A stretch of DNA of 64,000 bases from a virus. Its lineage: Duplodnaviria > Heunggongvirae > Uroviricota > Caudoviricetes. The position numbers and the translations under genes were made by a program. Within the stretch, counting starts at the first letter, position 1. The number at the start of each line of letters is the position of its first letter. The DNA lies in the IMG/VR virus record IMGVR_UViG_2886837984_000001, positions 1 through 64,000 of that record; one strand, 5' to 3'. Below the pieces are notes generated by a model. It was not told the DNA's origin. It made no database searches and saw only the letters and a program-made list of their open reading frames with translations. Shown here piece by piece: positions 6,105 to 45,784 of the stretch.

Positions 6105-6190
6105 GTATGTTCTAATGTTAGAATATATAAGTTCTATAATTAGAAGATTAATGTTCTAACGTTAGACTATTTATGTTCTAATGTTAGAAT
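6105..6190. promoter_or_regulatory. Array of four palindromic sites, TGTTCTAA-YG-TTAGAAT, spaced about 22 bp apart. A candidate operator array upstream of the leftward late operon.
   Basis: Three near-identical copies at about 6106, 6152 and 6174, plus a degenerate TTCTATAATTAGAA at about 6133. They are read directly from the sequence. Confidence 0.45.
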
Positions 6191-6462: not shown

Positions 6463-7114
6463 TCGATTCTAGAAAGGTGAGGGTTGACCCTCATGATAAA
6501 ATGGCGCCTTTATTGGACGTCAAAAATGAAAATATAACGCCTGAAACCAAAAGTGACGTCCCACGTAGTTGTGGCTTTTTCGTCAGGTTGCGAACCTGAT
6601 CCGGTGATAATTTGTCCGCAACGAGGCAGGACGATGTATGCACTCAATTGTGCGGTGCGCTAGGCACAAAATATAAAGACCCGACGAGGTTCGCTTCTAT
6701 GCTAGGCGTGTCGGGTTCCGGTAAATCAAATAAGACCCCAAAGGGTCGTGACAAATTTCTTTGCCACCAAATTGGTCTTTACAAATCAAATTTGCACCAC
6801 TTAAGGCGCGGGTTATCCAAATGAGGACACCCTCAATATAGAAGGCTCGAAGTGTTTCGCATATTCAGAGGCGTTTTCGAACTACTGTTCTAAAAAATAG
6901 ATGACGCCCCGTCTACGCCTTAGGGGGATAGCTTTCGTAGCATTGTTTTCCTTTTTTCAAAGCCGCTACGCCGGAGCAGGTTTCATCTCTAACCCGCTAG
7001 TTTTGAACACCCATTCGCCCACACAGCCTTTTGTCCGAAGTCTCGTTGACAGTCGATTGGATCGATACAAGATGACCTTCGGGGGTCTGAGTAGGAATTC
7101 TGGATGCCAAATTT

Positions 7115-13896: not shown

Positions 13897-13931
13897 GGGG
13901 TTGACACGAAATCAAAAAATATGGATAATAA
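13897..13931 (+). promoter_or_regulatory. Sigma-A-like promoter: TTGACA, a 17-nt spacer, then GATAAT. It lies upstream of the recombinase gene.
   Basis: GGTTGACACGAAATCAAAAAATATGGATAATAA. The spacer carries the recurring AAATCAAAAA box. Confidence 0.45.
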
Positions 13932-13968: not shown

Positions 13969-14988
13969 ATGGAAGCCATCAAAACAGTAGCGTTGAACAC
14001 GACAAACATTCAGAGCAATATCCGATTGTTCTTAGATAAGAAGGGGCTCAACTCCGATCAGACACGACGGGCATATGAGCGAGATATCGAGGAGTTCTTC
14101 ATCTTCTCGAAGAACAAGGCTGTCTCCGGTCTATTGGAGTCAGACGTATCGTTCTCGCCGCAAGACGTCGACAAATATCTCGTCCATCTGTCGGAGAAAG
14201 GGACTGCCTCGTCCACGATCAATCGTAAAGTCGTCTCTGTACGCTCTCTGATGCGCTACCTTGACCGCTTGGACGGATATGACATCAACTTATCGGCGTT
14301 CGATACCGGCTCTGTGAAGGGCGCTCAGAACTCGTATGGGGTGCTCACGTATGAAGAGACGGAGATGATGGCGAGCCGTGTCCTGTCTCACCGTAACGGT
14401 CAGATGAAGGCCGCCCTCATTCGTTTGGCCGTGGTGACGAGTTTCCGCTTGGATTCGCTCTTGCGATTGACGAAGACGGACTTTATGAATCAGCGAGGCG
14501 TGTGGACGGTGACAACGGTGGGGAAGGGCGGAGAACGTGATACGAAGGCTATCCGTGACGAGTTGTACGAAGAGATCCGCATGATCATGATGTTTAAAGA
14601 GGACGATGAGCCGATCTTCAAATTGTCTCCTGGGACTGCGTTGAACATGGTTAAGGGTCTGTCTGAGGAGATGGGGGTTCCGAAAGAGCGCAATATCACG
14701 TTCCACTCGCTGAAGAAGGCCGGTGTGACAGAGGTGTGGGTGCAGACGGGGTACGACGCTATGAAGACGAAGAAACAGGGGGCGCACAAGAACTTCTCTA
14801 CGACAGAGCGGTACATCGAGAACAACGAAGACTTCTCGCAGTCACAGAGCCTCTTGATCGGAAAAGAGATTGACTTGTCTATGTTGGACGGGCTGTCTAA
14901 AGACGAACTGCTCGAGTTCATCAACGGCATGAACCGCAGCGTGAAGATGCAGATCAAAAATGAGATCAAGAAAAAAGGGATGGCGTAA
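13969..14988 (+). CDS. Tyrosine recombinase or integrase, XerD/phage-integrase family.
   Basis: N-terminal core-binding region TRRAYERDIEEF. Candidate catalytic R in VVTSFRLDSL. HSLKKAGVT. The C-terminal motif is GAHKNFSTTERY. Confidence 0.75.
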   Translation: MEAIKTVALNTTNIQSNIRLFLDKKGLNSDQTRRAYERDIEEFFIFSKNKAVSGLLESDVSFSPQDVDKYLVHLSEKGTASSTINRKVVSVRSLMRYLDRLDGYDINLSAFDTGSVKGAQNSYGVLTYEETEMMASRVLSHRNGQMKAALIRLAVVTSFRLDSLLRLTKTDFMNQRGVWTVTTVGKGGERDTKAIRDELYEEIRMIMMFKEDDEPIFKLSPGTALNMVKGLSEEMGVPKERNITFHSLKKAGVTEVWVQTGYDAMKTKKQGAHKNFSTTERYIENNEDFSQSQSLLIGKEIDLSMLDGLSKDELLEFINGMNRSVKMQIKNEIKKKGMA

Positions 14989-17516: not shown

Positions 17517-17792
17517 ATGGCTTATCCAAAAGACGAACAAGAAACGGTGATCGTATATGAGGCAGAGACGGGGTTGTGGAGTTTCTACTCGACTCACCCG
17601 CCTCATATTCGTAAGTATAAGGAACTTTTGGTCGACGCGACGATGACTGAGGATCAATACGGTATCAACTCGATCCGAGGGAGAATCGAAGATGCGAATG
17701 TACGAATCTCTAAGAAGCGTGTCATGTCAGAGGAGCAACGTGCAGCCTTAGCAGAACGTATGCGTAAGATGCGAGAAGCGCAGAACACGTAA
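17517..17792 (+). CDS. Hypothetical protein.
   Basis: 91-aa ORF with an AAAGGATG RBS. Confidence 0.55.
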   Translation: MAYPKDEQETVIVYEAETGLWSFYSTHPPHIRKYKELLVDATMTEDQYGINSIRGRIEDANVRISKKRVMSEEQRAALAERMRKMREAQNT

Positions 17793-20717: not shown

Positions 20718-21020
20718 TAGTTGGTTTCATATGAAACAAAACAGAGATTTAGCGAAAGACGCTTGACAATCGAAATCAAAAAGTATATATTGTAATTAAG
20801 AGGTAGCGGAAACTACCTAAAAATTCATATGAGAATATGAATGATGTACTAGTATCGTACATACGTTTCGTTTTTCATGAGACGACCGCTCACTCGTTGC
20901 CATCGATAGCGGTCTGATCATATGCCTCCCTAGAGGGGTGAAGAGAGGTGTGATTCCTTTCGGGCATACCATACATACCGGATGTTTTTGTGACATTCAT
21001 GATTTACCTCCTCCTTTCGG

Positions 21021-24899: not shown

Positions 24900-25252
24900 A
24901 GCTTCATAAACAACGCGGCCTCTCTATCCAGCTTTTCGCGTTCCTCGCGCTCTCTCACGCTTTCGAAAACATAACCTTCAAACGTGTATGCCTTGTGATC
25001 TTTCTTAATCTCATAAGTACCATGTGATCCGTACATATCACAATTTACTTTTTCAATTAGCGTGATATTTTCAAACACGCTTAGATTGATGATAGCAGCG
25101 TACTGTAGTGCTTGCTCTGGCGTGTCTGCCTCAACTTCGTTAAACCTTTGCCCGTGATCTTTGCGCTCGCTTTCCCATGTATACATACCCGTTTCAGGAT
25201 CAAACAATAAATCATATTCTACAACAAACCCTTTAACAATAAATTTACTCAT
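24860..25252 (-). CDS. Hypothetical protein.
   Basis: The start is probably the ATG at 25252, which has AAGAGGAGG upstream. A palindromic operator promoter lies immediately upstream. Confidence 0.55.
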   Translation of the reverse strand: MSKFIVKGFVVEYDLLFDPETGMYTWESERKDHGQRFNEVEADTPEQALQYAAIINLSVFENITLIEKVNCDMYGSHGTYEIKKDHKAYTFEGYVFESVREREEREKLDREAALFMKLCEDARAPKADVR

Positions 25253-25288: not shown

Positions 25289-25309
25289 ATGCGTACAATG
25301 TACGCGCAA
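25289..25309 (-). promoter_or_regulatory. Promoter with an embedded 15-bp inverted repeat GCGTACA-A-TGTACGC. On the minus strand it reads TTGCGC, 17 nt, then TATACT.
   Basis: It is one of four near-identical boxes. See also 31364, 31939 and 32623. Confidence 0.5.
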
Positions 25310-25397
25310 TACTTTTTTAATTAGCTATCATATTTATTTTACGATCACATAGGCCGATCACATAAAAAAAGCACTCAACCCGTCAACGGTCAAGCGC

Positions 25398-25967
25398 TCA
25401 ACTTATCTTAATAAATTTTTTAATATCCTCGTCAATCACATAAACCGCATAAACCTTTTTGCCATGCTCGATCAACTTTACTTTAAACAATGGAATTGCT
25501 TTACCTTGTATCAATCCCGTATACATATCATATTCATTCAAGATGTGATTGCGATAATACTTTACATTGTTTGTCTTGCATATCCATTTAATCACGGTCT
25601 CTTTGTCGCTATCATAGCAGCGTATATAATTATACGTATATTTTGGTAGATTAACATTAACAATGTAGCTCTTACTCTCATTATGCAGGTTTACAGGTGA
25701 TCCCGTACACGTCAACCGATCTCCATCACTTTCTAGCGCTCTCACATGGCCTTTTTGGATCTCCGCAACGGCCGGCACTATATCATACTTTGTTACCATG
25801 TTAGCGGGTAAACATCGCGCGAGCTCGGGATAGATGTTACACGCTATATAAAATAACTCGTCTAACGTCTCTTGATCTTGTTTGTCTAACCATCTGTTAT
25901 AAGTTTGCAAGTAATAGCAATCCTCATCTTTTAGTTTAAAATTGTTAACGTCTCTCATCGTATACAT
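25398..25967 (-). CDS. Hypothetical protein.
   Basis: 189-aa ORF. Confidence 0.6.
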   Translation of the reverse strand: MYTMRDVNNFKLKDEDCYYLQTYNRWLDKQDQETLDELFYIACNIYPELARCLPANMVTKYDIVPAVAEIQKGHVRALESDGDRLTCTGSPVNLHNESKSYIVNVNLPKYTYNYIRCYDSDKETVIKWICKTNNVKYYRNHILNEYDMYTGLIQGKAIPLFKVKLIEHGKKVYAVYVIDEDIKKFIKIS

Positions 25968-25985
25968 ACATTCAAACCCTTTCTT

Positions 25986-26552
25986 TCAAGCCGTTACGAG
26001 CTCTTTATTTTTATTCAACTTCTTTTCAAGTTCCTCAACCGTTGGCAATTCTTCAAACATCTCTATTGCCTTATCCATGCTTAAACGCTTTACAGGTACA
26101 CCGTTTTCGAGCTTATACATATGAATCGAATCGCTTTGTCGTGTGCGGTTTGTTGCTTTAGCAGCGCTTTCGAGACGGCCGAACATATCGCGCTTCTCTT
26201 TGTGATCGTAACGGATTTGTGCCATATAGTAATCAAACATGGTACGTTGATTGACACTTTTTTTATAAAAGTAATCTACACCACTATTGCGTATAAATAC
26301 AATACCGTCCTTGTGATTGCCTAACATTTCGGCCGCTGTATGGATATAAAAATCATTTTCATATCTTGCATTTTTACCCTTTACCTTTTCAGTGAGCTCG
26401 GGAAACAATTCTGTTACGGCCTTTTTGATTGTCTTTTTAAGTCGATCAACCTTGTTTTCAATAACTCTTCTTTCTTCATTGTATACATTGTGTTTTCTCA
26501 TATCTAATTCTTGATAGCGAGCGATTTGTTTCAAAAGTGTCATTGTTTTCAT
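25986..26552 (-). CDS. Hypothetical protein.
   Basis: 188-aa ORF. Confidence 0.6.
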   Translation of the reverse strand: MKTMTLLKQIARYQELDMRKHNVYNEERRVIENKVDRLKKTIKKAVTELFPELTEKVKGKNARYENDFYIHTAAEMLGNHKDGIVFIRNSGVDYFYKKSVNQRTMFDYYMAQIRYDHKEKRDMFGRLESAAKATNRTRQSDSIHMYKLENGVPVKRLSMDKAIEMFEELPTVEELEKKLNKNKELVTA

Positions 26553-26606
26553 TTTGATTTCTCCCTTTTTGATTATGATTTTTTAATTTATTAGCAGCTT
26601 ACAACG

Positions 26607-27017
26607 TCATCTAAACCATGATTTATTAATTTCTTCGTAACGCTCTTTTGTGATTGCCTGGCACGTCTCAACGTATTCTTTTTTAACTTCGTTGTGGCCG
26701 TCCAAAACATTGAAGATTAATAACGTGCCATTGTCGTAAACGTCTACTAGCTTAAACGTGTCGAGCGGTGCGTTTTCGCGTCCGTCTTGTGGATCGTAGT
26801 AATAAATACCTTTAGCAGTTGCGTTTGTTACCATGTATAAACGGTGGCTTGCTTCGTCTTCGTCTTTAAATCCATCTTCAAACAATTCGCAATCGTTACA
26901 TAAACACCATTCGTCACCGCTATCCAACCATACAATTTCAACCTCTTCATTTTGTTCTTCTAGATTATTTAAAATTGTGTTCCATTGTGTAAGACTGATT
27001 CTTTTTGCAGTTTCCAT
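26607..27017 (-). CDS. Hypothetical protein.
   Basis: 136-aa ORF. Confidence 0.6.
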   Translation of the reverse strand: METAKRISLTQWNTILNNLEEQNEEVEIVWLDSGDEWCLCNDCELFEDGFKDEDEASHRLYMVTNATAKGIYYYDPQDGRENAPLDTFKLVDVYDNGTLLIFNVLDGHNEVKKEYVETCQAITKERYEEINKSWFR

Positions 27018-27104
27018 GTGTAGCAGCTCCCTTGTTTTTGAGTGTTAAAATAATTGTTTTAACGGATAAATTGCTTTTAAAATCCCTTACAGGGTAATGA
27101 TTTT

Positions 27105-27377
27105 TTAAACAGTCATTTCGAGCCGTGATAATTCTTGATAGACTTCATCAAACTTCTGATCACTATCCGTCAAAATTAGTTCATGCTCGCTTTGCCATAC
27201 GTTGATATATTTATCGAGCATAATAATATAGTTTGGTGTTTGGCCGTCTACCTGCAATGCCTTGTTGTTATAAATGATATAGCTATCATTCAACGTCCCT
27301 TCAAAAACTTCCATATCCAATTGTTTTTCGCTTGCAAGTTCCAAAATTTTTCTTGATTCGTCCGCTGTTAGTCTCAT
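27105..27377 (-). CDS. Hypothetical protein.
   Basis: 90-aa ORF. Confidence 0.5.
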   Translation of the reverse strand: MRLTADESRKILELASEKQLDMEVFEGTLNDSYIIYNNKALQVDGQTPNYIIMLDKYINVWQSEHELILTDSDQKFDEVYQELSRLEMTV

Positions 27378-27436
27378 TTTTAATCATTCCTTTTCTGTTT
27401 TTTGATTTCAGTACATGGCCGATTTATCGGCCTGGA

Positions 27437-27919
27437 TTAATTGTTTTCACCGTCTTGTGTAAAATAAATCATATTTTCTAAATCCTCGCGAATCAAAATA
27501 ATTTCCTCATATGATCCACCGTCATCAATGTAATGGCCGTTATAAATTTTTTCTAATGCAGCTTGTAATTCTTTTTCCGTGTGATTTTCTACGTTTGTTG
27601 TGTATTCATAATAAAAATGATTAAAGTAACGGCCTAGCCCGTAAACTTCTTCATATTCATATTTAAAACCGTTGATTTCGTCCGAAAACTCAACTTTTAA
27701 TTCTTTATCAGCCTCGTTTAAATGGCCTTGTAAATTTTCAAGCGTGATCTTTTTGTGCGCTTGCTGGCGCTTGTTAAAAATATGATCATCTGCCTTGTTT
27801 TCGTCCCCGTTAAAAAAGATTCTCGCGAAATCATATTGACCGATTTGTTTGTACATCTTATCCAGCTCCCTTTGTTTGATGTGATTATTATACAGTTTGT
27901 AAGGCCGTTGACGCTTCAC
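27437..27919 (-). CDS. Hypothetical protein.
   Basis: 160-aa ORF. Confidence 0.55.
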   Translation of the reverse strand: MKRQRPYKLYNNHIKQRELDKMYKQIGQYDFARIFFNGDENKADDHIFNKRQQAHKKITLENLQGHLNEADKELKVEFSDEINGFKYEYEEVYGLGRYFNHFYYEYTTNVENHTEKELQAALEKIYNGHYIDDGGSYEEIILIREDLENMIYFTQDGENN

Positions 27920-28496
27920 TTTTTTGTACTAGCTTATAATCATATGGATTAAAACCGTGTTCTCGAATATACTCGCCTAACAACTTACGATTAACAAAAC
28001 TCAAACGACTTATTTCTTTTACTTCGTCCCACTGTTTAGCGATTGATAATTTTTCATCGTTCGATAAATTAGGATACATTTTATTGATTTTTTCAGTGGC
28101 GTATTTATTTAGCCGCTCGATTTCGCTCTTGTTTTCCGTCATTTCTTTAAAGTCCTCGATTGCAGCTGGCGACACTTCGCGATCACGTTTAAAGCCTTCG
28201 TATTTTCTTACTGACTTGTAACGGTCATCGGCTGGACGTAACGTGTAATAAGTTGTCGTTGCATATTTGTTTAAAATCGTTTCGTTTTGTTCGATGTGAT
28301 TAAGTGTCGGTACAACAAAACAAAATTCTTTTTTATTTCGTCCATAATATACGGCTGTTACTTCATCAACTTTGTTAGACACAAGGATAACGCTTGCTCT
28401 TTGTGTTTCGTGCATATCGTAAGGATATAAAGCATATTCTTTAGACGTTTCTTTAATTTTTGCTTTTTTAAACTCTGTAAATGTCATTCTTCTCAT
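27888..28496 (-). CDS. Hypothetical protein.
   Basis: The start is probably the ATG at 28496, which has AAAGGATGA upstream. Confidence 0.55.
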   Translation of the reverse strand: MRRMTFTEFKKAKIKETSKEYALYPYDMHETQRASVILVSNKVDEVTAVYYGRNKKEFCFVVPTLNHIEQNETILNKYATTTYYTLRPADDRYKSVRKYEGFKRDREVSPAAIEDFKEMTENKSEIERLNKYATEKINKMYPNLSNDEKLSIAKQWDEVKEISRLSFVNRKLLGEYIREHGFNPYDYKLVQKSEASTALQTV

Positions 28497-28527
28497 TTTA
28501 ATCATCCTTTTCGTTTTGATTTTTTGT

Positions 28528-29058
28528 TTAAAACTTTTCGAGCGATCCATGCGCGTTAAAACCCATCATAGTTAAGTGAGCATATTCTAAAACTTTTTCA
28601 TCGTTCCGGGATTCTTCAAAAATGTTATTTAGATGACTTTTAACCGCGAAACGAACCGCCTTTTGAATATCGCTTTCGAGCTCGTTGTAAGTCGTTCCGC
28701 TCTTTTTGGCAAAGTAAGCAGCTAGATAGTGATCTCCGAACGTGTCCCACGCTATTAAGCACTTAAAATCATCTTCTTTGTTGCGATTAATCGTATCGAC
28801 TAGATCGTTTTTATCTTCGTTGTCGAGACGGCTAAAATAATACGTATCTAAAACGATATGCGGTTGGTAACATGGTTTAACGTCATACTGTAAGATGTCC
28901 GTTTTAAAGGTTTTACAAAACGCTTTAATCGCTCGCTCAACGTCCCAACCCTGCCGATCGTTTAGGTGTTTTAAATACTTGTCTCTCGCTTGATTGATTG
29001 CACGTTTTCTAAAACGTCCGTGTAGCTCGTCAATTTCATACAGTGTAATCTGTCTCAT
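28528..29058 (-). CDS. Hypothetical protein.
   Basis: 176-aa ORF. Its ATG overlaps the stop of the upstream small ORF. Confidence 0.6.
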   Translation of the reverse strand: MRQITLYEIDELHGRFRKRAINQARDKYLKHLNDRQGWDVERAIKAFCKTFKTDILQYDVKPCYQPHIVLDTYYFSRLDNEDKNDLVDTINRNKEDDFKCLIAWDTFGDHYLAAYFAKKSGTTYNELESDIQKAVRFAVKSHLNNIFEESRNDEKVLEYAHLTMMGFNAHGSLEKF

Positions 29059-29225
29059 TTTTTTAGATCCTCTTCGTCCAAAACGTAAGTTTCGATAAAA
29101 TATAAATCTTCGTCACACTCAAAACACTGATATGAATAATCCTCTAAATCACTTTTATATACTTGACTGTCACATCTACTGCACAAACGGTTGATACAAT
29201 CTTTTTCAATTACCTTTTCATCCAT
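29055..29225 (-). CDS. Small zinc-ribbon protein, 56 aa, with two CxxC pairs.
   Basis: RBS AAGGGAGCG. MDEKVIEKDCINRLCSRCDSQ...CFECDEDL. It is not in the ORF track. Confidence 0.45.
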   Translation of the reverse strand: MDEKVIEKDCINRLCSRCDSQVYKSDLEDYSYQCFECDEDLYFIETYVLDEEDLKK

Positions 29226-29261
29226 CTTTATTCGCTCCCTTTAAAATATTTATTTTAGCGG

Positions 29262-29528
29262 TCATTTTCTGAAACAATTACTTCTAAAAACATATCCGAT
29301 CAAAAGGCTTTTATCATTCCAGCAAGTTTGATATAAGACTTCTTTGTAAAATTCTGAAGCGTGAAACAATATCCCGTTTCGGCCGTGATACTGCAAGCGA
29401 TCCATAATAAACTTTTTAACGACTTTATCTGAATTGTAAGAAAGATTAGTGTTCTTGTTTTTTAGATCCGTATAGCCGTTAAAAATTTCATCGGCTACAC
29501 GGTCAATTTTTCTAGTTCTCATGTTCAC
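29262..29528 (-). CDS. Hypothetical protein.
   Basis: 88-aa ORF. Confidence 0.5.
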   Translation of the reverse strand: MNMRTRKIDRVADEIFNGYTDLKNKNTNLSYNSDKVVKKFIMDRLQYHGRNGILFHASEFYKEVLYQTCWNDKSLLIGYVFRSNCFRK

Positions 29529-29890
29529 ATATCCTTTCTTTTTGCTAACGTTTCTTTTAATTCGCTCGCTAGTTCCGGTTTGAAAAACTCAACGGCCTCT
29601 ATAAAGTAATGCAGCCGCGATTCATAATATTTAGCGTTTCCAATGTCTCCGTATTTTTCAAACGTCTCTTTAAACTGCATATAGCCGTTAAACTCTTCTT
29701 TAATTTGATCGTCCGTTAAAACGATTTCGCGTTCATAATTTTCCGCTGGCGCGTCGCTTTCATAGTCCCTAACACCGAAAGCCTTCCTAATGATTGCAAT
29801 TTGAGTCATAACTCTAATACTTTCTTCGCGAGACGTTAACGTTTTAAAATCAAGCTCTTTAACCTTGTTTAGTAATGTAACGTTGTTCAT
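29525..29890 (-). CDS. Hypothetical protein.
   Basis: 121-aa ORF, coupled to its neighbour. Confidence 0.55.
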   Translation of the reverse strand: MNNVTLLNKVKELDFKTLTSREESIRVMTQIAIIRKAFGVRDYESDAPAENYEREIVLTDDQIKEEFNGYMQFKETFEKYGDIGNAKYYESRLHYFIEAVEFFKPELASELKETLAKRKDM

Positions 29891-29908
29891 TTGTTTACCT
29901 TCTCTCTT

Positions 29909-30340
29909 TTAATACTCTTCTTCTAACACTGATTTAATAGCGAGCTCCAAACCCTTTTTAAGATTCGGCCGCTCGTTAACGCTTGTCATTGATAAGTCTA
30001 GCGCTTGCAACGTGTCGCTTAAATCGTAAGTATAACTGTATTCATGATTTCCTAGTTCATAGCGAAACATCTCTAAAATGAAACCCTCTCCGGTTTGATC
30101 GGATTCAATAGCTGCCTTTAATTCTTGTTCCTGTCGCTCGAACATATTATCAAAATCCATTAAGCTATCTTTTTTAATAAATCCTCCATTGCCAATATCC
30201 AAAACCATGTTAGTTTGATCTTTTTCAAGTTCTAACTTTTTCATACCTTCGTCAAACTGTTTGTTTGAAAATGCGAACATGATAGGAAAGTCATTTAATT
30301 GTTTTTGGTGTCTATCCTTCATTTGCTTATAAGCGTTCAT
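29909..30340 (-). CDS. Hypothetical protein.
   Basis: 143-aa ORF. Confidence 0.55.
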   Translation of the reverse strand: MNAYKQMKDRHQKQLNDFPIMFAFSNKQFDEGMKKLELEKDQTNMVLDIGNGGFIKKDSLMDFDNMFERQEQELKAAIESDQTGEGFILEMFRYELGNHEYSYTYDLSDTLQALDLSMTSVNERPNLKKGLELAIKSVLEEEY

Positions 30341-30366
30341 TTTTGAAACCTCCTATATTTTTTTAT

Positions 30367-31104
30367 TTAAAAGAAAATTTTCATATTTTGCGATCCGGTT
30401 TTTTGCTTGTTCTGTTTCGCTTCATAACGATCAACCGTTTCCCATCGATACGTATTCATATTGTTGTATTCGATTGTGATAGCGTTGTCCATGTCGTCGC
30501 CATCTTCTTTTGTCATACGTGACCGCCATACTTTTTTGTATTTAGATTCATAAATGAGTTCGCACGTTTGACACTCTCCGATTGATTCTGTTAGTGTCTC
30601 AACCTCTTCTAAGCGTCGATCAATTTCAATGTATGGCCGGCCGTCTTCTGCTTTAGTTTCGGCCATGTAGTCGTGAATTTCGTTTAATAGCAGCGCTTTT
30701 AATTCTTCTTCGTTTTGGCCGAACAAGGTTTCTAACGTCCATGCTTTCCGGCCTTTTGGCGCTTCGCTCTTAAACTCTCGTTCTGTTACCTTTACATGGT
30801 AGCGCGTTTCTAACCCTGCATACACATAGCTTTCGGCACTCAATGAAAAGTATCGTGTTTTACCGTCAATCTGTTTAATAACGGTGCGCTCGTTGCTGTT
30901 ATGCGAATCAGTGAGCAGCGAGAACGTTTTAAACGCTTCGGCCTTTTCATGATCGGTATTGCTTGCCGTTGTCGTGCGAGCCGTTTCCCTAACCGTTTCA
31001 ATGGCCGTTAAAAGCTCGCTTTTATTCATTCTCGATCTACCTGCAATGTTCAATTCTTTCGCGAGTGAGTAAAGTTCTTTTTGTGTTTTGTCAGTGATGT
31101 TCAT
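30367..31104 (-). CDS. Hypothetical protein with an N-terminal SAP/Rho-N-like helix pair.
   Basis: ELYSLAKELNIAGRSRMNKSELLTAI motif. Confidence 0.55.
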   Translation of the reverse strand: MNITDKTQKELYSLAKELNIAGRSRMNKSELLTAIETVRETARTTTASNTDHEKAEAFKTFSLLTDSHNSNERTVIKQIDGKTRYFSLSAESYVYAGLETRYHVKVTEREFKSEAPKGRKAWTLETLFGQNEEELKALLLNEIHDYMAETKAEDGRPYIEIDRRLEEVETLTESIGECQTCELIYESKYKKVWRSRMTKEDGDDMDNAITIEYNNMNTYRWETVDRYEAKQNKQKTGSQNMKIFF

Positions 31105-31125
31105 TTTGGTTAGCTCCCTTATGAT

Positions 31126-31299
31126 TAGTATTTTTTGATTACAGTAACAGTGTTTTCGTTCCCGTTATATGACTCAATTTCAAGCGGCGAAACAATGATA
31201 CTTTTAAACGTATCGGCCGATGGTGCGATACTTACGTCAATCTTTCGGCCGTTGATCCATTCGCTATACTGTTCGCGGTTTGAAAAGTAAACTAGCATG
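31126..31299 (-). CDS. Hypothetical small protein, 57 aa.
   Basis: RBS AACGGAGGTAAAAC. It is not in the ORF track. Confidence 0.45.
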
Positions 31300-31363
31300 A
31301 TGTTTTACCTCCGTTAAAATGATGTTTTTACTTGCTGTTTCTTAACTACCTTTAGTTTAACAT

Positions 31364-31383
31364 AAGCGTACATTGTACGCAAG
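31364..31383 (-). promoter_or_regulatory. Promoter with an embedded palindrome, AAGCGTACATTGTACGCAAG on the plus strand. On the minus strand it reads TTGCGT, 17 nt, then TAAACT.
   Basis: It is one of four near-identical boxes. Confidence 0.5.
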
Positions 31384-31413
31384 ACTTTAAATAAAAGTTT
31401 TTATTTTTTTATT

Positions 31414-31521
31414 TAGATGATGATAAACCCTTGTACGATCCACTGGATGACGATGATTGCAAAACCTGCAACGGCCATACCGGACAAGATCAAATAGTTT
31501 ACGTTGTCTCTCTTTTCCATG
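31414..31521 (-). CDS. Small membrane peptide, 35 aa.
   Basis: RBS TTGGAGGTATGAGAC. The sequence YLILSGMAVAGFAIIVIQWIVQGFIII is hydrophobic. Confidence 0.4.
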
Positions 31522-31636
31522 TCTCATACCTCCAATTACAAGCCTAAACGCTTGTTTAGTTTTTGTACGGCCATTTGGTTGTAATCGTCAACCTGGTTTG
31601 TTACACGTTTACGCTTGAATAGTGCGAGTAGCTTTT

Positions 31637-31876
31637 TCATGATGCGGCCTCGCTTTCCGTTTTATGATCGACAGTGTAAAGATATTCAAAATGTGCAAAA
31701 ACTTTTGAATCGTCACTATTTAAGGCCGTTGCAATATAAATGTGTTCGTAACGATAATTAAGCATATTCATAGACACCGCTCGTTTGTCGAGCTCGTTCT
31801 GCAAGACTACACTATCGACGATATTTAAAGATTTGGCATTTGACACGTTACTATAAACACTATATTTGCGATTCAT
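31637..31876 (-). CDS. Hypothetical protein.
   Basis: 79-aa ORF with AGGGAGGATTTTAAATG upstream. Confidence 0.5.
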   Translation of the reverse strand: MNRKYSVYSNVSNAKSLNIVDSVVLQNELDKRAVSMNMLNYRYEHIYIATALNSDDSKVFAHFEYLYTVDHKTESEAAS

Positions 31877-31938
31877 TTAAAATCCTCCCTTACAAGCGTT
31901 GTGCTCGTGTGTTTGTCGATCTATTAATAATATACAAT

Positions 31939-31958
31939 AAGCGTACATTGTACGCAAG
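31939..31958 (-). promoter_or_regulatory. Promoter with an embedded palindrome, AAGCGTACATTGTACGCAAG. On the minus strand it reads TTGCGT, 17 nt, then TATATT.
   Basis: It is one of four near-identical boxes. It lies 60 nt upstream of the 31876 gene start. Confidence 0.55.
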
Positions 31959-32379
31959 TGTTTTTTAAAATTAATTCTTTTTTATTTCGTTATGACGGGT
32001 TTCTTCTATTAAATAGCGTTTAAAATATACGGTGCTAAATCGGCCATTCGGATTATATACGGACGTGATTGATCCGTTTGGATGGTTTGGCCGTGTTTAA
32101 ATACGATCTATCTTTTTAATACGGCCAAAACATAACGAGCGCTAGCGAGCGATCTAATAGATCGTGATAGGGTAGTCCGTCCTGCTGCATGATCGGCCGT
32201 TGATCGGCCTAGCGATCTATCTTTCTTCCTGGCGTTCGATCCGTCCGGCCTTCGCTGGCGACGCGATCCGCCGCGAGCTCGCAGAGCTCCGCTCCTCGTG
32301 TCGGCGTCGTCAACCTAATAAGGGCGATGCAGACGTTTGTCCAAAAACCGTATAACAGCAAAGTCTTATATAAACCCTG

Positions 32380-32580
32380 TTATTTGTGAGTTTTGCGCGG
32401 TGTAATTTGATCCTTCAGACAATCGATAGTTGTCGTCTTCCAGAGTGGGCGGCCTTTATACGTATATGCGTCGGGCTCCGGCATATTATTTTGTGTGACA
32501 CGGTTCGAGATGGTGCTCCGCGAGATCTCTAGATAATCTGCAACTTCAGTGGTCGTTAAAAGAACTGTTTTATGGGTCAT
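32380..32580 (-). CDS. HTH DNA-binding protein of the excisionase or MerR-like HTH_17 type.
   Basis: The start is probably the ATG at 32580, which has CAAGGAGGCG upstream. HTH motif TTTEVADYLEISRSTISNRV. Confidence 0.6.
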   Translation of the reverse strand: MTHKTVLLTTTEVADYLEISRSTISNRVTQNNMPEPDAYTYKGRPLWKTTTIDCLKDQITPRKTHK

Positions 32581-32622
32581 AATTGACGCCTCCTTGAGTG
32601 GTTTGTAACTAAATAGTAACAC

Positions 32623-32642
32623 AAGCGTACATCATACGCAAG
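32623..32642 (-). promoter_or_regulatory. Degenerate copy of the palindromic promoter box, AAGCGTACATCATACGCAAG. On the minus strand it reads TTGCGT, 17 nt, then TACTAT.
   Basis: It lies upstream of the HTH gene. Confidence 0.45.
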
Positions 32643-32762
32643 CTAATTACAAAAATATTTTTATAAGGGTTTTACAGTCTCTTGTACAAAAACCGTATAA
32701 CAGAAACTCATATAAAAAACCCCGCCGAATTGAGCGAGGTCTGATGTATAACGATGTATGAT

Positions 32763-33240: not shown

Positions 33241-33816
33241 TTATAGGATTTTTTCAAACCCTTTTTCCGATTTCAGGTAAATGTTTTGTGAATTAGTAGA
33301 AATATAGATTTTTTCCAAGCTTTCGACCTTGCTTAGTACGGCGTCATACTGCTCGCTCGTCATCATCTGCATGATATCGATGATGTTTGATTTTCTATAT
33401 CCATCTTGATAGTGCTCGACCGTTTCCTTTCGCCAATACCTGCGCTTCGTATCGTAAAACTCGTATGCCGGGAATTTTTCCGAATCAACCAAGCGATTGA
33501 ACTGAGACGGGGAATTGTCTGTAAATTTGGCGGCCTCACTAGCAGACATGATCTCGAAGTCTCGAGAAGGGGCGTTCAGATCGATCACAACGTCCTCTCT
33601 TACATAGGATTTAGGTATCTGAGGATAGAGCGTGTCGTAACCCATCTCCTTTATGAACTTAGCCCATGTGCGAGGGGTCATATACCCCTGCTCAATGCCA
33701 TGATCGTCTAACCATTCGCTCAATTTCTCCTTTTTGAACAAGCAAGTTCTAAAGCGGAGGTCTTCGTCTACAAAACAATAGATGCGATTTTGATAGTTAA
33801 CTAGGTTCATCTTCAT
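33241..33816 (-). CDS. Hypothetical protein.
   Basis: 191-aa ORF. It is the first gene of the leftward block. Confidence 0.6.
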   Translation of the reverse strand: MKMNLVNYQNRIYCFVDEDLRFRTCLFKKEKLSEWLDDHGIEQGYMTPRTWAKFIKEMGYDTLYPQIPKSYVREDVVIDLNAPSRDFEIMSASEAAKFTDNSPSQFNRLVDSEKFPAYEFYDTKRRYWRKETVEHYQDGYRKSNIIDIMQMMTSEQYDAVLSKVESLEKIYISTNSQNIYLKSEKGFEKIL

Positions 33817-34143
33817 GGTGTTACCTCGCTTTCTAAATCAAAAAGTAGCGGTTGTTTAATTTATATGTTCCACGGGAACATAATTTGAAACATTATTTTT
33901 TTAATATGCTCACATTTCTTATATATTCTGTGATAGAGTAGAGTTATAGAACGTAGTATAATAATACTATAATGTATTAATACATTAACTTTATACCCCT
34001 ATGGGTAAAAAAGTATGTCTGTCCCAACGATTTTTTCATTTCCCAAGTTTTTAAGTTTGCTAAAGTGTACAGGTTTTGTGTAAGTTTTTATCAGATAGTT
34101 TATACAAATTATTCCTAAATCAAAAAAATAATACAATTAAGAG

Positions 34144-35370
34144 GTGGAGACGATGGTGAACGAAGATCTAACCCCGCAACGTTTAGCAGAAGTATTGCAA
34201 GATTTTCTGTACGAAAACCGTTATGATCATGATTTATTTAATGATTTACAAAAGAATTTGAAAAAACATGAAATATTTTCTAAAGATATTACAGATATTA
34301 TGAATAAAAGAACAGATTTCAAAGATATTCCTGCCACCGAGCTCGTGTTGTTTGCGCGGATTGTGTACGGCCGCTTTCCCGACTTCGAGATCATCAATCC
34401 GCAACGCTATTTCAAGCCAGGAGAGATCAAGGCGGCGCAATATTATACCCGCAACAATCGTCCTGAGTATATCAAACTTCCTTTGACAGTGAACAACGCA
34501 TTAAGCGTCCAGTACGACGAGTATATCGCCATCATGTCGGCCAAACAGCTCGTCAAGATGTTGGATAGCAGCATTGTCACCTACAACTTCGACTCACAGC
34601 GCGACGCGAAGAGCATGGTGGACACGAACGGAAGAATCGTGAGAGCGATCAACGTCAACCAAAAGTCGGTCATCGAGATCGCGCAACTGATGTTGAACGG
34701 AGAATATCTCCCCGATATGCTGACATTTAATATGTTGTTAGGTTCTAATGACGAAAGAGAAGAGTTTTCCTCTAAAGGAAACAGTATTGTCGTCAACGAA
34801 GGGACTCAGCTCGACATCTTGGACGGATTCCATCGTCTGTCTGCCATGCAGCAAGCGGTCGAAGCGAATCCAGAATTCGACTTAAACTTCCCTGTCGCCT
34901 TTAAAAACTTTGATATCCAAAAAGCGAAGCGCTATGTCGGTCAAACGAACACGTTTAACGTCATGCCTAAGGCGTATGTCGAGCAACTGAGAGCCAAAGA
35001 CCACTACGCATACATCGTCAACGAGCTCATCAACAACAGCGACCTGAAGGGGCGTGTGGGGTATCAGCGACGCCCAATCTTCGACAACGGAGAGATCACT
35101 ACGTTCGACCGTCTAAAGAATGCCATTCAGAAACAGTATAACGTCAAGATGAAACGAGAAGCGATGGGTGTGGTGGAGACACTTGTCCCGTTGTTCGATG
35201 AATTGATTTTCCTATACCTATCAGAGAAACCTGATCCACATGAAACATTGTTTGCTACGGTCGACGGGATAGATCGATTGTTAAATAAATATAAAAAGAT
35301 TGATAAAGATATAAAACGTGTCGATTTAGATTTCTTATTAGCCACAACAGAAAAAGGACAATTATTATGA
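34144..35370 (+). CDS. ParB/Srx-fold (ParB N-terminal domain-like) nuclease-domain protein.
   Basis: The LDILDGFHRLSAM motif is of the DGxHR type. 408 aa. RBS AAGAGGTGGAG. Confidence 0.5.
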   Translation: METMVNEDLTPQRLAEVLQDFLYENRYDHDLFNDLQKNLKKHEIFSKDITDIMNKRTDFKDIPATELVLFARIVYGRFPDFEIINPQRYFKPGEIKAAQYYTRNNRPEYIKLPLTVNNALSVQYDEYIAIMSAKQLVKMLDSSIVTYNFDSQRDAKSMVDTNGRIVRAINVNQKSVIEIAQLMLNGEYLPDMLTFNMLLGSNDEREEFSSKGNSIVVNEGTQLDILDGFHRLSAMQQAVEANPEFDLNFPVAFKNFDIQKAKRYVGQTNTFNVMPKAYVEQLRAKDHYAYIVNELINNSDLKGRVGYQRRPIFDNGEITTFDRLKNAIQKQYNVKMKREAMGVVETLVPLFDELIFLYLSEKPDPHETLFATVDGIDRLLNKYKKIDKDIKRVDLDFLLATTEKGQLL

Positions 35371-36431
35371 CAAACTTAGAGAATTTTGAAACCAATAAGC
35401 AAAAATTATTAGATGATGACCTATTTTATAATGCAGAATATAAATTAGATTTCTTAGACAAACATAAAACCAAAACACAGGATTTTAATTTTTACTATCG
35501 ATTATTTATCAACGTAAAAGAAAAAGAAGAAAGCCTTGGTCGTGATATGTACGACTTCTCTCGTCGTGATATCGAGGATGTCGTGTCGGGGATGCACCCG
35601 TCGACCTCTTCTGCTGCCGCCAAAATCATCGCAATGATCAAGCGATACCTGACTCACGCGGCACAAGACGGCGAAAAGAGTTCAAATATCGTTCACCAGG
35701 TAGGCAAATTGACAGATATGGCGAATAGTTTTCTTCCTAGTAATCCGAAATTCTATGTGTCAGAAGCAGAATTACAATTATTAGAAGATAGCTGTATGAA
35801 TCCGCAGGACGCATTTATCTTCCGGGCGATCTTCGAAGGGGTTTTGGGGGCTGAGATGACCGAGCTACGCAACCTAAAGATGAGCGATATCGATATCCAT
35901 CAAAATTTAGTCTCAATCAATATAGCTGATTACAACAAGAACCGGACAATCCGAGTGACAGAGCGATTTATTGATATGGCCGTAAAAGCATATGAACAGA
36001 AAGTATATATATTAAATAATGGCGAAGACGTCAGCGAGAACTTCATGCGCGCAAACACAGAATACGAGTTAGAAGATTCGGGATACATTATGAAGAAGTC
36101 GCATATTGGACGTATGATCAAGGATGCTCCGATTACGACGCCGACGCTATACAAACGATTTAATAACATCAAGGCGTTTCAATCATTCGAGACGATCGAT
36201 AAATATTACTTGAAATTCAACAACATTTATAAGAGCGGTGCGATCTGGTATGGGGCTCGTTATATAGAAGAAAAGCAGATAGCAATCAAGAAACTGACGG
36301 ACGATCATATGAAAGAGGTGGCTCGCCACGTCAAGAACGTCTATCAAGATCTCCCGGTAGATATCAAGAAGATCGTGAACGTTGAGAATATCGAAGAGTT
36401 ATATGTGGAAAAAGGGAAGATTATTTCGTAA
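35367..36431 (+). CDS. Hypothetical protein.
   Basis: 354-aa ORF, coupled to its neighbour. A weak tyrosine-recombinase-like box (LGAEMTELRNLKMSDID) lacks the catalytic Arg, so no product call is made. Confidence 0.55.
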   Translation: MTNLENFETNKQKLLDDDLFYNAEYKLDFLDKHKTKTQDFNFYYRLFINVKEKEESLGRDMYDFSRRDIEDVVSGMHPSTSSAAAKIIAMIKRYLTHAAQDGEKSSNIVHQVGKLTDMANSFLPSNPKFYVSEAELQLLEDSCMNPQDAFIFRAIFEGVLGAEMTELRNLKMSDIDIHQNLVSINIADYNKNRTIRVTERFIDMAVKAYEQKVYILNNGEDVSENFMRANTEYELEDSGYIMKKSHIGRMIKDAPITTPTLYKRFNNIKAFQSFETIDKYYLKFNNIYKSGAIWYGARYIEEKQIAIKKLTDDHMKEVARHVKNVYQDLPVDIKKIVNVENIEELYVEKGKIIS

Positions 36432-36541
36432 GAGGGGAGCAATCCTCTCTTTTTAATTTATTTTAAGCCAGATGCTTGACGTACTAAATCAAAAAGTATA
36501 GTATAGAGAATGTAAGAACAATACATAACACGAAGGAGTGA

Positions 36542-38678: not shown

Positions 38679-38927
38679 TCAGGTTAAGAAAATAAGAACG
38701 AACGTTCGTGTTGAGGAAAAAATGGCTATAAAACACTATAAATTATAGTTTTTACCCGTCATTTTCCTCAACTAAACCTTTTTACCCAAAAATATCTAAA
38801 GAAAGTCATACAATATTCCTAAATTATCTAGATTATTTGCCAATTAAGAGGTATTATAAATAGGTGATATAAGAATACGTATGCAATCAAAATGTTTTTA
38901 TAATTAAGAAAACGGGGGATTCAACAC

Positions 38928-39278
38928 TTGAACGATACATTCTCAACATCCAACCTACGCAGCACAAGCCCGTTCCAAAGCCTACAACGAGACGCTGTCG
39001 AAGCGAAAGCTCAGATCAGGCACTACAAACAACATGAGAACTTCATTGGAATGGTATTGTCAGATAGCACACTCGAAGAAAAAGTGACACACTTGTTCGT
39101 CAAGAAGGCTTCAAAAGGCCACATTGACAAACTCCTGGATATCATTTCAAAGATGACACATGACGAGATGTACGAGACGTATGTCGAACACATGGAGTAC
39201 GTCGGAGACCTTCCAGGTTTGGCGCGACTGTTTACATACCGAAAGGTGACAACGGATTTCAATTTTGCAAATGGTTGA
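38928..39278 (+). CDS. Hypothetical protein.
   Basis: TTG start with ACGGGGGA upstream. Confidence 0.4.
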   Translation: MNDTFSTSNLRSTSPFQSLQRDAVEAKAQIRHYKQHENFIGMVLSDSTLEEKVTHLFVKKASKGHIDKLLDIISKMTHDEMYETYVEHMEYVGDLPGLARLFTYRKVTTDFNFANG

Positions 39279-45284: not shown

Positions 45285-45784
45285 GTGACGACAAGGTATT
45301 GAAGTGGGACAAGACATGGATGAACTTTGCTATCGATATGGCTGATACACATTCGAAATGCGCTTCTCATCGAGTGGCATGTGTGCTAGTCAAAGACGAT
45401 AAGCCGATCTCGATCGGTGTGAACGGGACGATCCCAGGCGCTACGAACTGCAACGAAATCTTCTCAAAAGTGGACGGTGTTTGGCATACGAAGGTCACGA
45501 TGACGGATGACTTATATCGCTGCGATGATCAACTGGCGCACCACAAATGGTCAAAAGAGAACGAGATTCACGCAGAAATCAACGCTTTGGCAAAGGTAGC
45601 GAAGTCGCATGAAAGTTGTGACGGGGCGACGGCCTACGTGACGCTGAGTCCATGTCGGTCGTGCGCGCTTGCGATGATCGCGTCGGGGATCAAGCGGGTC
45701 GTGTATCTGAATACATATGATAAGAGCGATAGTTTCGAACTTTTCCGTCAAGCAGGGGTCGAACTGAAAAAGTTAAATATCTAA
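45281..45784 (+). CDS. dCMP deaminase, zinc-dependent.
   Basis: HAEINAL and SPCRSCA zinc-binding motifs. Confidence 0.85.
   Translation: MSDDKVLKWDKTWMNFAIDMADTHSKCASHRVACVLVKDDKPISIGVNGTIPGATNCNEIFSKVDGVWHTKVTMTDDLYRCDDQLAHHKWSKENEIHAEINALAKVAKSHESCDGATAYVTLSPCRSCALAMIASGIKRVVYLNTYDKSDSFELFRQAGVELKKLNI

Follow-up and report, generated by a model that had tools for sequence, protein, structure and literature searches.

The locus examined here raises the question of why four promoters of one phage carry the same palindrome, and which protein reads it. The promoters lie on the minus strand of a 64,000-nucleotide stretch from a virus of the Caudoviricetes (IMG/VR record IMGVR_UViG_2886837984_000001, positions 1 to 64,000; hereafter the window), and the analysis of the palindromic box and of its reader covers these 64 of the phage's 121 kb. 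Our results indicate that the box is very probably a protein operator. On balance, we consider it probable that the four boxes serve as operators of one phage repressor, most probably a 66-residue helix-turn-helix (HTH) protein, designated HTH66, that would be made from one of the four promoters itself. The set would then constitute a classical autoregulated repressor-operator arrangement, an ordinary phage gene switch, and this interpretation is well supported by comparison with the sequences of related phages.

A palindromic box in four leftward promoters

A sequence-only reading of the window had pointed to the pattern TTGCG(T/C), 17 nt, TAnnnT at 25289, 31364, 31939 and 32623 on the minus strand, and a search with TTGCGY-N17-TANNNT returned these four places and no others, all of them on the minus strand. 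The four are predicted to be sigma-A-type early promoters. P1 (32613..32641) consists of a -35 TTGCGT (32641-32636), a 17-nt spacer and a -10 TACTAT (32618-32613) after TGT, and would drive the HTH66 gene; P2 (31929..31957) reads TTGCGT-17-TATATT, P3 (31354..31382) reads TTGCGT-17-TAAACT, with TGT, and P4 (25281..25309) reads TTGCGC-17-TATACT, with TGG. The spacer measures 17 nt at all four (18 in a few relatives), TG occupies -15/-14 in three of them, and A/T-rich flanks lie upstream of each. Each promoter contains one dyad, likewise on the minus strand. Box O1 in P1 (32625..32639; GCGTATGATGTACGC) is an imperfect palindrome with two mismatches, O2 in P2 (31941..31955) and O3 in P3 (31366..31380) are both the perfect palindrome GCGTACAATGTACGC, and O4 in P4 (25291..25305) is the perfect palindrome GCGTACATTGTACGC, shifted by 2 bp relative to O1-O3. 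The proposal of a palindrome in all four promoters is thereby refined, with three perfect copies, an imperfect one at 32623 and a displaced one at 25289, while a 20-nt string said to be common to the four, AAGCGTACAWTGTACGCAAG, proved exact at 31364 and 31939 and inexact at the other two. With the promoters as predicted, the box covers -35 bases 3-6 and 11 of the 17 spacer bases at P1-P3 (dyad span about -33 to -19), and -35 bases 5-6 and 13 spacer bases at P4 (-31 to -17). The P4 box has thus moved 2 bp toward the -10 relative to both hexamers (TTGC, then GCGTACA...), and ends 4, not 6, nt before it. Strong Shine-Dalgarno sequences accompany the starts at 25252, 31298, 31876 and 32580, which are 39, 68, 65 and 45 nt from the proximal box edge, respectively; the second of these starts had been placed at 31299 in the earlier reading.

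The recurrence of the box is far beyond chance. Allowing up to two mismatches, GCGTACAWTGTACGC has exactly four matches in the window (three perfect, one with two mismatches) against 0.03 expected, and none of 100 shuffled sequences reached four. A symmetrised weight matrix built from the box sites scores the four boxes at 21.9 to 25.5 bits and everything else in the window at 10.8 or less, and the box is the sole family of perfect palindromes with at least three copies in the window. The sequence around the four copies is unrelated except for the hexamers. Several more familiar origins of such a dyad were also considered. The LexA (SOS) box of Bacillales, GAAC-N4-GTTC (CGAACNNNNGTTCG core), is not enriched in the window and does not occur at P1-P4, where the box core reads GTAC-N3-GTAC, unlike the LexA core. 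Avoidance of GTAC as a restriction site is not seen in the window (observed/expected 1.02), and an Rfam scan of 23-37 kb returned nothing above noise.

Conservation of the box was assessed in relatives, which were recovered by protein searches of a large collection: the syntenic 123-kb contig L031, the short contigs L035-L042 and, later, L156, L154 and L155. Other sources contributed little. No relative was found among INPHARED phages (megablast and tblastn) or in PLSDB (blastn); a pattern scan of IMG/VR gave 29 single chance matches and a protein scan of it none; a pattern scan of JGI metagenomes gave 110 single matches, none of which encodes a relative of eight window proteins; and the sole return from GTDB representative genomes was a 31% identical Brevibacillus homologue of the MrpR-like protein discussed below. 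L031 and L035-L042 (six lineages) carry the box at their orthologues of P1, P2 and P3, and of P4 wherever their sequence extends that far, and the box stays while the genes behind P2 and P3 differ among phages. Twenty sites from six lineages whose boxes read GCG...CGC yield the consensus GCGYAYRWTGTACGC, in which C2, G3, A5, T11 and C13 are invariant and G1, T9, A12, G14 and C15 are kept at 19 of 20 sites. Information content is 1.7-2.0 bits at the outer positions and about 1 bit in the centre, such that the outer GCG.A and T.CGC are retained and the central YRW is free, and no base outside the 15 bp is conserved in this profile. The P1 box is imperfect in all seven lineages examined, the P3 box is perfect in four of the six GCG-box lineages, and the 2-bp register shift at P4 is found in L031 as well as in the window. 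A comparable family of GC-containing palindromes was seen neither in the Brevibacillus locus nor in a 50-kb stretch of SPbeta.

Taken together, the dyad-symmetric constraint, the unrelated flanks and the 2-bp shift at P4 argue for a site of a two-fold symmetric protein. The earlier suggestion that a palindrome across the -35 and spacer represents a repressor site is consistent with all of this, since the layout is dyad-symmetric, is kept at orthologous promoters in six further lineages and slides by 2 bp.

HTH66 as the candidate reader

HTH66 (32380..32580, minus strand) is the proposed cognate repressor. Its matches to Pfam HTH_17 and to the NCBIfam family 'excise' are both weak and below cut-offs; nevertheless, a Pfam analysis of the 86 small open reading frames of the window recognised HTH_17 as the only DNA-binding domain, in HTH66 and in a 191-residue protein. 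An AlphaFold2 model of HTH66 (predicted local distance difference test score, pLDDT, of 74) shows a beta strand, two helices, a two-strand wing and a short C-terminal helix. Foldseek placed this model with the RacA DNA-binding domain on DNA (5i44, the best match), BldC (6ama) and MtaN (1r8d), at probabilities of 0.99-1.0, template modelling (TM) scores of 0.56-0.69 and E-values of 0.016-0.05. The model thus describes HTH66 as a stand-alone MerR-type winged helix without C-terminal domains, in agreement with the initial description of the 32580 gene as encoding an excisionase- or MerR-like HTH protein, and an excisionase function may be an additional role. Two small proteins of this kind are instructive. 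The RacA DNA-binding domain, a monomer in solution, dimerises weakly (as a 'wing dimer') when bound to a GC-ended palindrome of 14 bp, the ends of which are read by its helices (PMC4914108), and D29 Gp36, a MerR-like phage protein of small size, represses early and late genes by way of direct repeats (PMC12266134). Geometry of the RacA type predicts conserved GC-rich ends about 10 bp apart with a free A/T centre, as the box displays.

The HTH (LLTTTEVADYL..RSTIS(N/T)RV) and the wing (MPEPDAYT(Y/F)K.RPLWK) of HTH66 stay invariant in five lineages in which the protein as a whole is 62-89% identical, and helix and wing are unchanged wherever the box is GCG...CGC. The most informative relative is L156, which is closely related to L035 and has a different box. 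There, the boxes of all three promoters read GTG...CAC (six of six half-sites; P1 GTGTTCAATGTACAC, P2 GTGTATATCGTACAC, P3 GTGTACAGTGTACAC), a symmetric change at positions 2 and 14, which are invariant and 19/20, respectively, in the 20 GCG-box sites. The HTH66 of L156 carries RSAISQRI in place of RSTIS(N/T)RV, with T23A, N26Q and V28I in addition to T10S and a change at residue 20. Comparison of L156 with L035 demonstrates how local this divergence is: protein identity amounts to 99.7% for the DndB-like protein encoded nearby, 96.6% for a 117-residue protein, 90.6% for the 191-residue HTH protein and 77.3% for HTH66, and the HTH66 gene together with P1 forms a trough of nucleotide identity (72-78% against 92-98% in the flanks). 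In these sequences the operator changes in step with HTH66, whereas the DndB-like, 117-residue and 191-residue proteins do not follow it. We regard it as likely that HTH66 is the reader of the box. The earlier idea that the 32380-32580 protein is the autoregulating factor is favoured by its invariant helix and wing, by the L156 co-variation and by the imperfect box at its own promoter.

A mechanism can be proposed on this basis. Two HTH66 monomers, one per half-site, would insert their recognition helices into major grooves some 10 bp apart at the GC-rich ends, with their wings meeting over the A/T centre as those of the RacA domain do on its 14-bp palindrome. Bound HTH66 would block the contacts of sigma region 4 and of the spacer and thereby keep RNA polymerase off the promoter. 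As HTH66 accumulates, P3, P2 and P4 would be shut first and its own P1 last, because the P1 box is imperfect in every lineage, and this Cro-like negative feedback would limit or switch off the early leftward genes. The circuit probably works alongside the MrpR/SroF-like repressor, which would act on a separate A-rich motif, and it may serve lytic growth only or may also contribute to silencing in the lysogen alongside that repressor. An operator for a MerR-type activator was considered and set aside. The spacer is 17 nt rather than an over-long 19-20 nt, and HTH66 is devoid of a coiled-coil dimerisation helix and of an effector domain, which makes MerR-style activation unlikely.

Several points weigh against HTH66 as the reader. 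Confidence in its model is moderate (pLDDT 74), the Foldseek E-values are weak (0.016 and above), and the protein has no recognisable dimerisation element. Small HTH_17 or MerR-like proteins, such as BldC, D29 Gp36 and excisionases, mostly bind direct repeats. Moreover, the co-variation comes from one lineage, L156, within a mosaic group, and boxes and HTH66 may have been inherited as a linked block; in that case the argument requires that the unchanged neighbouring proteins be unable to read both types of box. The L035 contig ends before the MrpR-like gene, so that the identity of its product to the L156 protein is deduced.

Other readers deserve consideration, foremost two proteins encoded on the plus strand. 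An MrpR/SroF (YopR)-like protein (35367..36431), presumed to be the master repressor, lies 3 kb away and beside a DndB-like (DGQHR) protein (34144..35370), the counterpart of SroE/YopQ (Pfam DndB 2.8e-10; PHROG 5732 3.5e-76). The former is a clear homologue with a dead tyrosine-recombinase fold (Pfam MrpR_N_CB 8e-16, 58.9 bits against a cut-off of 27, with the C-terminal domain at 18.5 against 27 and so below cut-off; PDB 9rd5 5e-16 and 8a0a 3e-10; 25.7% identity to phi3T and SPbeta-derived phage records by tblastn). When it is aligned with SPbeta MrpR (about 20% identity), the catalytic R-I, H-II, R-II, H/W-III and Tyr nucleophile are all replaced. Were the boxes its operators, they would be the local equivalent of the SPBRE, a 15-bp MrpR-bound motif located in the spacer/-10 region of about ten SPbeta early promoters (PMC10516654), with the same layout of a box inside early promoters. 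We nevertheless judge this highly improbable. SroF of phi3T wraps around its DNA as a monomer and, in an asymmetric A-tract box of 26 bp, reads 24 (bioRxiv 10.1101/2025.11.27.690993), whereas the strict 7-1-7 GC-ended dyad and its symmetric change in L156 fit a small dimer. The SPBRE copies of the SPbeta genome read as CAAATACAAAWAATATGTATA and are found within the spacers of promoters or immediately ahead of ribosome-binding sites. Unlike the GC-ended dyad, they are rich in A and show asymmetric conservation; identity of the box with the asymmetric A-tract motif of about 24 bp was rejected on these grounds. A better SPBRE-like candidate exists in the window, namely AAATCAAAAAGTA, at places that correspond to those in SPbeta. 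Mapping the putative DNA-contact residues of the MrpR-like protein onto its homologues did not discriminate. The DndB-like protein, as a second lysogeny repressor, is hardly a probable reader at all, despite the report of SroE as a second repressor of SPbeta-like phages, the neat pairing of two motif classes with two repressors that this would offer, and the palindromes TACG-N10-CGTA bound by the repressor DndB of Salmonella (PMC4507180). The box does hold CGTA...TACG, but the order and spacing of the tetranucleotides differ (CGTA-N5-TACG), and there is no box upstream of the DndB-like gene's own operon. One of its 396 residues differs between L035 and L156 although the nucleotides differ by up to 15% per 100-nt segment, which indicates strong constraint on a protein that stayed the same while both ends of every box changed. 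L154 and L155, furthermore, keep both the MrpR-like and the DndB-like genes and are without the box.

It is also conceivable that the box has a different reader and that HTH66 is merely an early gene product such as an excisionase, for which its weak excisionase-family matches could be cited. The reader might then be a phage protein encoded beyond the 64 kb analysed, the 191-residue HTH_17 protein, its 126-residue neighbour, or a dimeric host factor of the Fur family or of the BlaI/CopY type. A 7-1-7 dyad that has CG as its second and third bases is reminiscent of the Zur box of Bacillus, TCGTAAT-N-ATTACGA, and TACA..TGTA of the cop and bla operators. We consider this alternative unlikely. Phages that have one and the same box differ in the recognition segment of their 191-residue protein (SPSQFNRLV, PSSNMTRLV and SPSKLKLLI), and its HTH segment is nearly unchanged between GCG-box and GTG-box phages; the 117/126-residue protein is 96.6% identical between phages of the two box types; and a host factor leaves unexplained why the type of box tracks the type of the small HTH gene across lineages. 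The box is, in addition, absent from the other 60 kb of the window. Very little probability attaches to the view that the box is not an operator and instead represents a relic of promoter duplication, an element for RNA polymerase or a weak terminator hairpin. Its first four bases overlap the -35 hexamer, and a terminator scan flags the boxes as short GC-rich hairpins before T-rich DNA; in relatives, however, the 3' flank is not T-rich (ATATGA, AATCGG). The flanks of the four copies are unrelated beyond the hexamers. Neither a duplication relic nor a polymerase contact predicts conservation with dyad symmetry and the symmetric change in L156, and the slide of the P4 box by 2 bp relative to both hexamers speaks for an operator rather than for a part of the sequence recognised by RNA polymerase.

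The phage, its transcription units and other candidate sites

The window is assigned by its gene content and protein identities to an SPbeta-like phage of Exiguobacterium sp. SH5S4. The MrpR-like protein is 100% identical to a hypothetical protein of that strain, located on a contig of 121,308 bp, and 76% identical to its counterpart in L031. Relatives P0001, P0003, P0016, P0020 and P0021 occur on contigs of 116 to 123 kb, a size that points to complete phage genomes, each assembled on its own and present outside the chromosome or in active replication, rather than to integrated prophages. A terminator at 36430-36451 closes the DndB/MrpR-like pair and is followed by a replication module resembling yorF-yorK; further genes of the window encode a RecD2-like helicase, PhoH, a LAGLIDADG endonuclease and a bona fide tyrosine recombinase (13969-14988). 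The 191-residue protein with a C-terminal HTH_17 domain (33241..33816, minus strand) is the first gene product of the leftward operon that begins at the divergent region. A palindrome in the divergent region, GTTCCACGGGAAC (33868-33880), was dropped because it is not conserved in L031.

The units transcribed from P1-P4 would cover most of a low-GC block of small leftward genes of about 10 kb, from 32.6 to 23.7 kb. Intrinsic terminators at 32742-32717, which ends the upstream operon before P1, and at 25399-25369, before P4, delimit separate transcription units. Behind P2 lie three minus-strand genes, 31876-31637 (79 residues), 31640-31536 (34 residues) and 31520-31413 (35 residues, hydrophobic). 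The P3 operon extends on the minus strand from 31298 down to about 25398 as a long leftward run of small genes, including one for a Rho_N-domain protein (31104-30367), and the P4 genes begin with 25252-24860 and continue on the same strand to 23677. Very small genes, including those for 35-residue hydrophobic peptides, are found under P2 and its orthologues (31413-31520 in the window; 5872-5979 in L031), and recall the SPBRE-controlled toxin gene spbT/yonT of SPbeta. Between HTH66 and P2, positions 31960-32380 form a GC-rich non-coding stretch of 420 bp with many GGCCGATC-like repeats. Within it, a conserved inverted repeat, ATGTTTTGGCCG...CGGCCAAAACAT, occupies 32082-32133, and conserved blocks occur in all relatives. 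No Rfam family matches this stretch, which could be an origin, a partition site or an RNA.

Sequences around HTH66 hint at a unit that can be exchanged among these phages. P1 and HTH66 are flanked in the window by two direct copies of a repeat of about 45 nt, 80% identical (32318-32361 and 32663-32706), and so they are in the diverged relative L035 (2735-2779 and 3085-3129). Because of these flanking repeats, we suggest that P1 and HTH66 form an exchangeable cassette, an idea that fits the low identity of this stretch between L035 and L156. In L154 and L155, whose DndB-like proteins are 37-41% identical and which possess an MrpR-like gene, the place corresponding to HTH66 is taken by a gene for a 72-residue HTH_26 (Cro/C1-type) protein, and no GYG-type box was found in either. 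L154 instead contains another palindrome, TGATTTWAAATCA, eleven times against 2.8 expected, clustered at the divergent promoter of the HTH_26 gene and at early promoters. The cassette was seen in three states. Two combine HTH66 with either GCG or GTG boxes, and the third combines the HTH_26 protein with TGATTTWAAATCA. We tentatively entertain, as a possibility that is more doubtful than the operator assignment, a two-layer switch in these SPbeta-like phages of about 120 kb. The SroE/SroF module would act through A-rich boxes at the replication, recombinase and module's own promoters, and the exchangeable promoter-operator-repressor cassette would set a separate, lineage-specific specificity for the host-takeover genes.

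The A-rich motif in question, AAATCAAAAAGTA, has seven exact copies in the window and 39 with up to two mismatches against 4.6 expected, and is always oriented with the local genes. The copy at 36486..36498 (plus strand) fills the spacer of the replication-module promoter, TTGACG-17-TAGTAT, and stands outside the palindrome system; that at 20773 lies in the spacer of TTGACA-17-TATATT; that at 13909 is at the tyrosine recombinase promoter, where it likewise fills the spacer; and that at 33835 is upstream of the DndB/MrpR-like operon, where a variant also occurs just before the operon's ribosome-binding site. Other copies are at 11481, 13874, 16864 and 39452, in addition to about 30 weaker ones. 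The SPBREs before yorE and yopM in SPbeta (PMC10516654 and our reading of the genome) are at the places that correspond to AAATCAAAAAGTA sites, and L031 has the variant AAATAAAAAAGTA at orthologous positions. The motif is likely the counterpart of the SPBRE and a candidate operator of the MrpR/SroF-like protein, or else a strong UP-like element. Another variant, AATTAAAAAAGTA, lies directly next to the -35 hexamers of P4 and of three further promoters, at 45783, 52980 and 62550.

Additional sites were noted in the window and in other phages. An iteron-like array at 6109-6190 comprises 3.8 copies of the palindrome GTTCTAA-N-TTAGAAC with a 22-bp period. The perfect LexA-type core GAAC-N4-GTTC is present at two intergenic sites, 6878-6891 and 38695-38708, the latter downstream of the MrpR-like gene and upstream of a small gene (38928-39278), an arrangement that recalls the SOS-controlled antirepressor Sar of SPbeta-like phages. 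The palindrome GTAATGCATTAC occurs upstream of operons with a DndB-like gene, both in SPbeta (17773-17786 and 17857-17870 of L001, one exact and one with a mismatch, before yopM/sroA) and in L154 (9899-9914); as a candidate, it would be an operator conserved in operons of the sro type, and may be the site of the DndB-like SroE. In Alicyclobacillus phage KKP_3916 (L153), about a dozen intergenic sites between 771 and 14100, upstream of the MrpR homologue, place a -35 TTGACA inside the 13-bp palindrome CGCTTGACAAGCG. These share the design of the box and differ from it in sequence, and that stretch encodes one HTH_26 and no HTH_17 protein.

Comparison with known repressor systems

The present results define from sequence a small, predicted regulon, complete in its parts, in an unstudied group of Exiguobacterium phages, with four promoters, one operator consensus including its putative contact positions, and a candidate repressor. 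The natural specificity variants, GCG with RSTISNRV and GTG with RSAISQRI, make the assignment of the reader directly testable, and a compact, orthogonal pair of repressor and promoter is a possible genetic part for Bacillales. General concepts of phage regulation are unchanged by this operator set. It does suggest that the early genes of SPbeta-like phages, a group noted for its unusual integrase-fold repressor SroF, can be subject to a further repressor-operator layer of the conventional type. If the two-layer reading is right, a domain-only MerR-type winged helix would act as a Cro-like repressor on a dyad embedded in the promoter spacer, a simple steric ancestor or derivative of the MerR layout.

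Among known systems, the lambda Cro/CI operators share the most general features with the box. In both cases several copies of one short dyad cover the -35 and spacer of early promoters, an imperfect copy lies at the regulator's own promoter, and repressor and operator change specificity together between related phages. The proposed reader, in contrast, is a 66-residue MerR-type winged helix and not a Cro/CI fold, one operator per promoter takes the place of a tripartite array, and the four sites are distributed over 7.3 kb without a divergent PR/PRM arrangement. The SPBRE-MrpR (SroF, YopR) system of SPbeta and phi3T resembles the present one in the phage context, with sroE-sroF-like genes directly upstream of a yorF-yorK-like module, and in the presence of a repeated box within early promoters, for which silencing is proposed here. 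The SPBRE/phi3T box is, however, A-rich, asymmetric and bound by a monomer over about 24 bp, whereas the box described here, a dyad of 15 bp with GC ends, changes together with a small HTH protein.

Comparisons with MerR-like proteins concern the putative reader. The RacA domain on the B. subtilis ram site (TGACGCCGGCGTCA) is the best structural match to the HTH66 model and is likewise a MerR-like winged helix of about 70 residues. RacA differs from HTH66 as proposed in that it anchors the chromosome, has a coiled coil at its C terminus, does not repress transcription and has its sites outside promoters. D29 Gp36 and Streptomyces BldC resemble HTH66 as small MerR-type domains without coiled-coil or effector parts; they bind GC-rich or AT-rich direct repeats as head-to-tail multimers, while the candidate site of HTH66 is an inverted repeat. 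The operators of the MerR family are similar to the box in that a dyad with the half-site core CGTAC is located between the -35 and the -10 and is read by a MerR-type winged-helix regulator, as in merO, TCCGTAC-N4-GTACGGA, a dyad inside the promoter spacer. MerR promoters differ in having a spacer of 19-20 nt and in being activated by DNA untwisting, whereas the spacer of P1-P4 is 17 nt and HTH66 would bind them with neither a dimerisation helix nor an effector domain.

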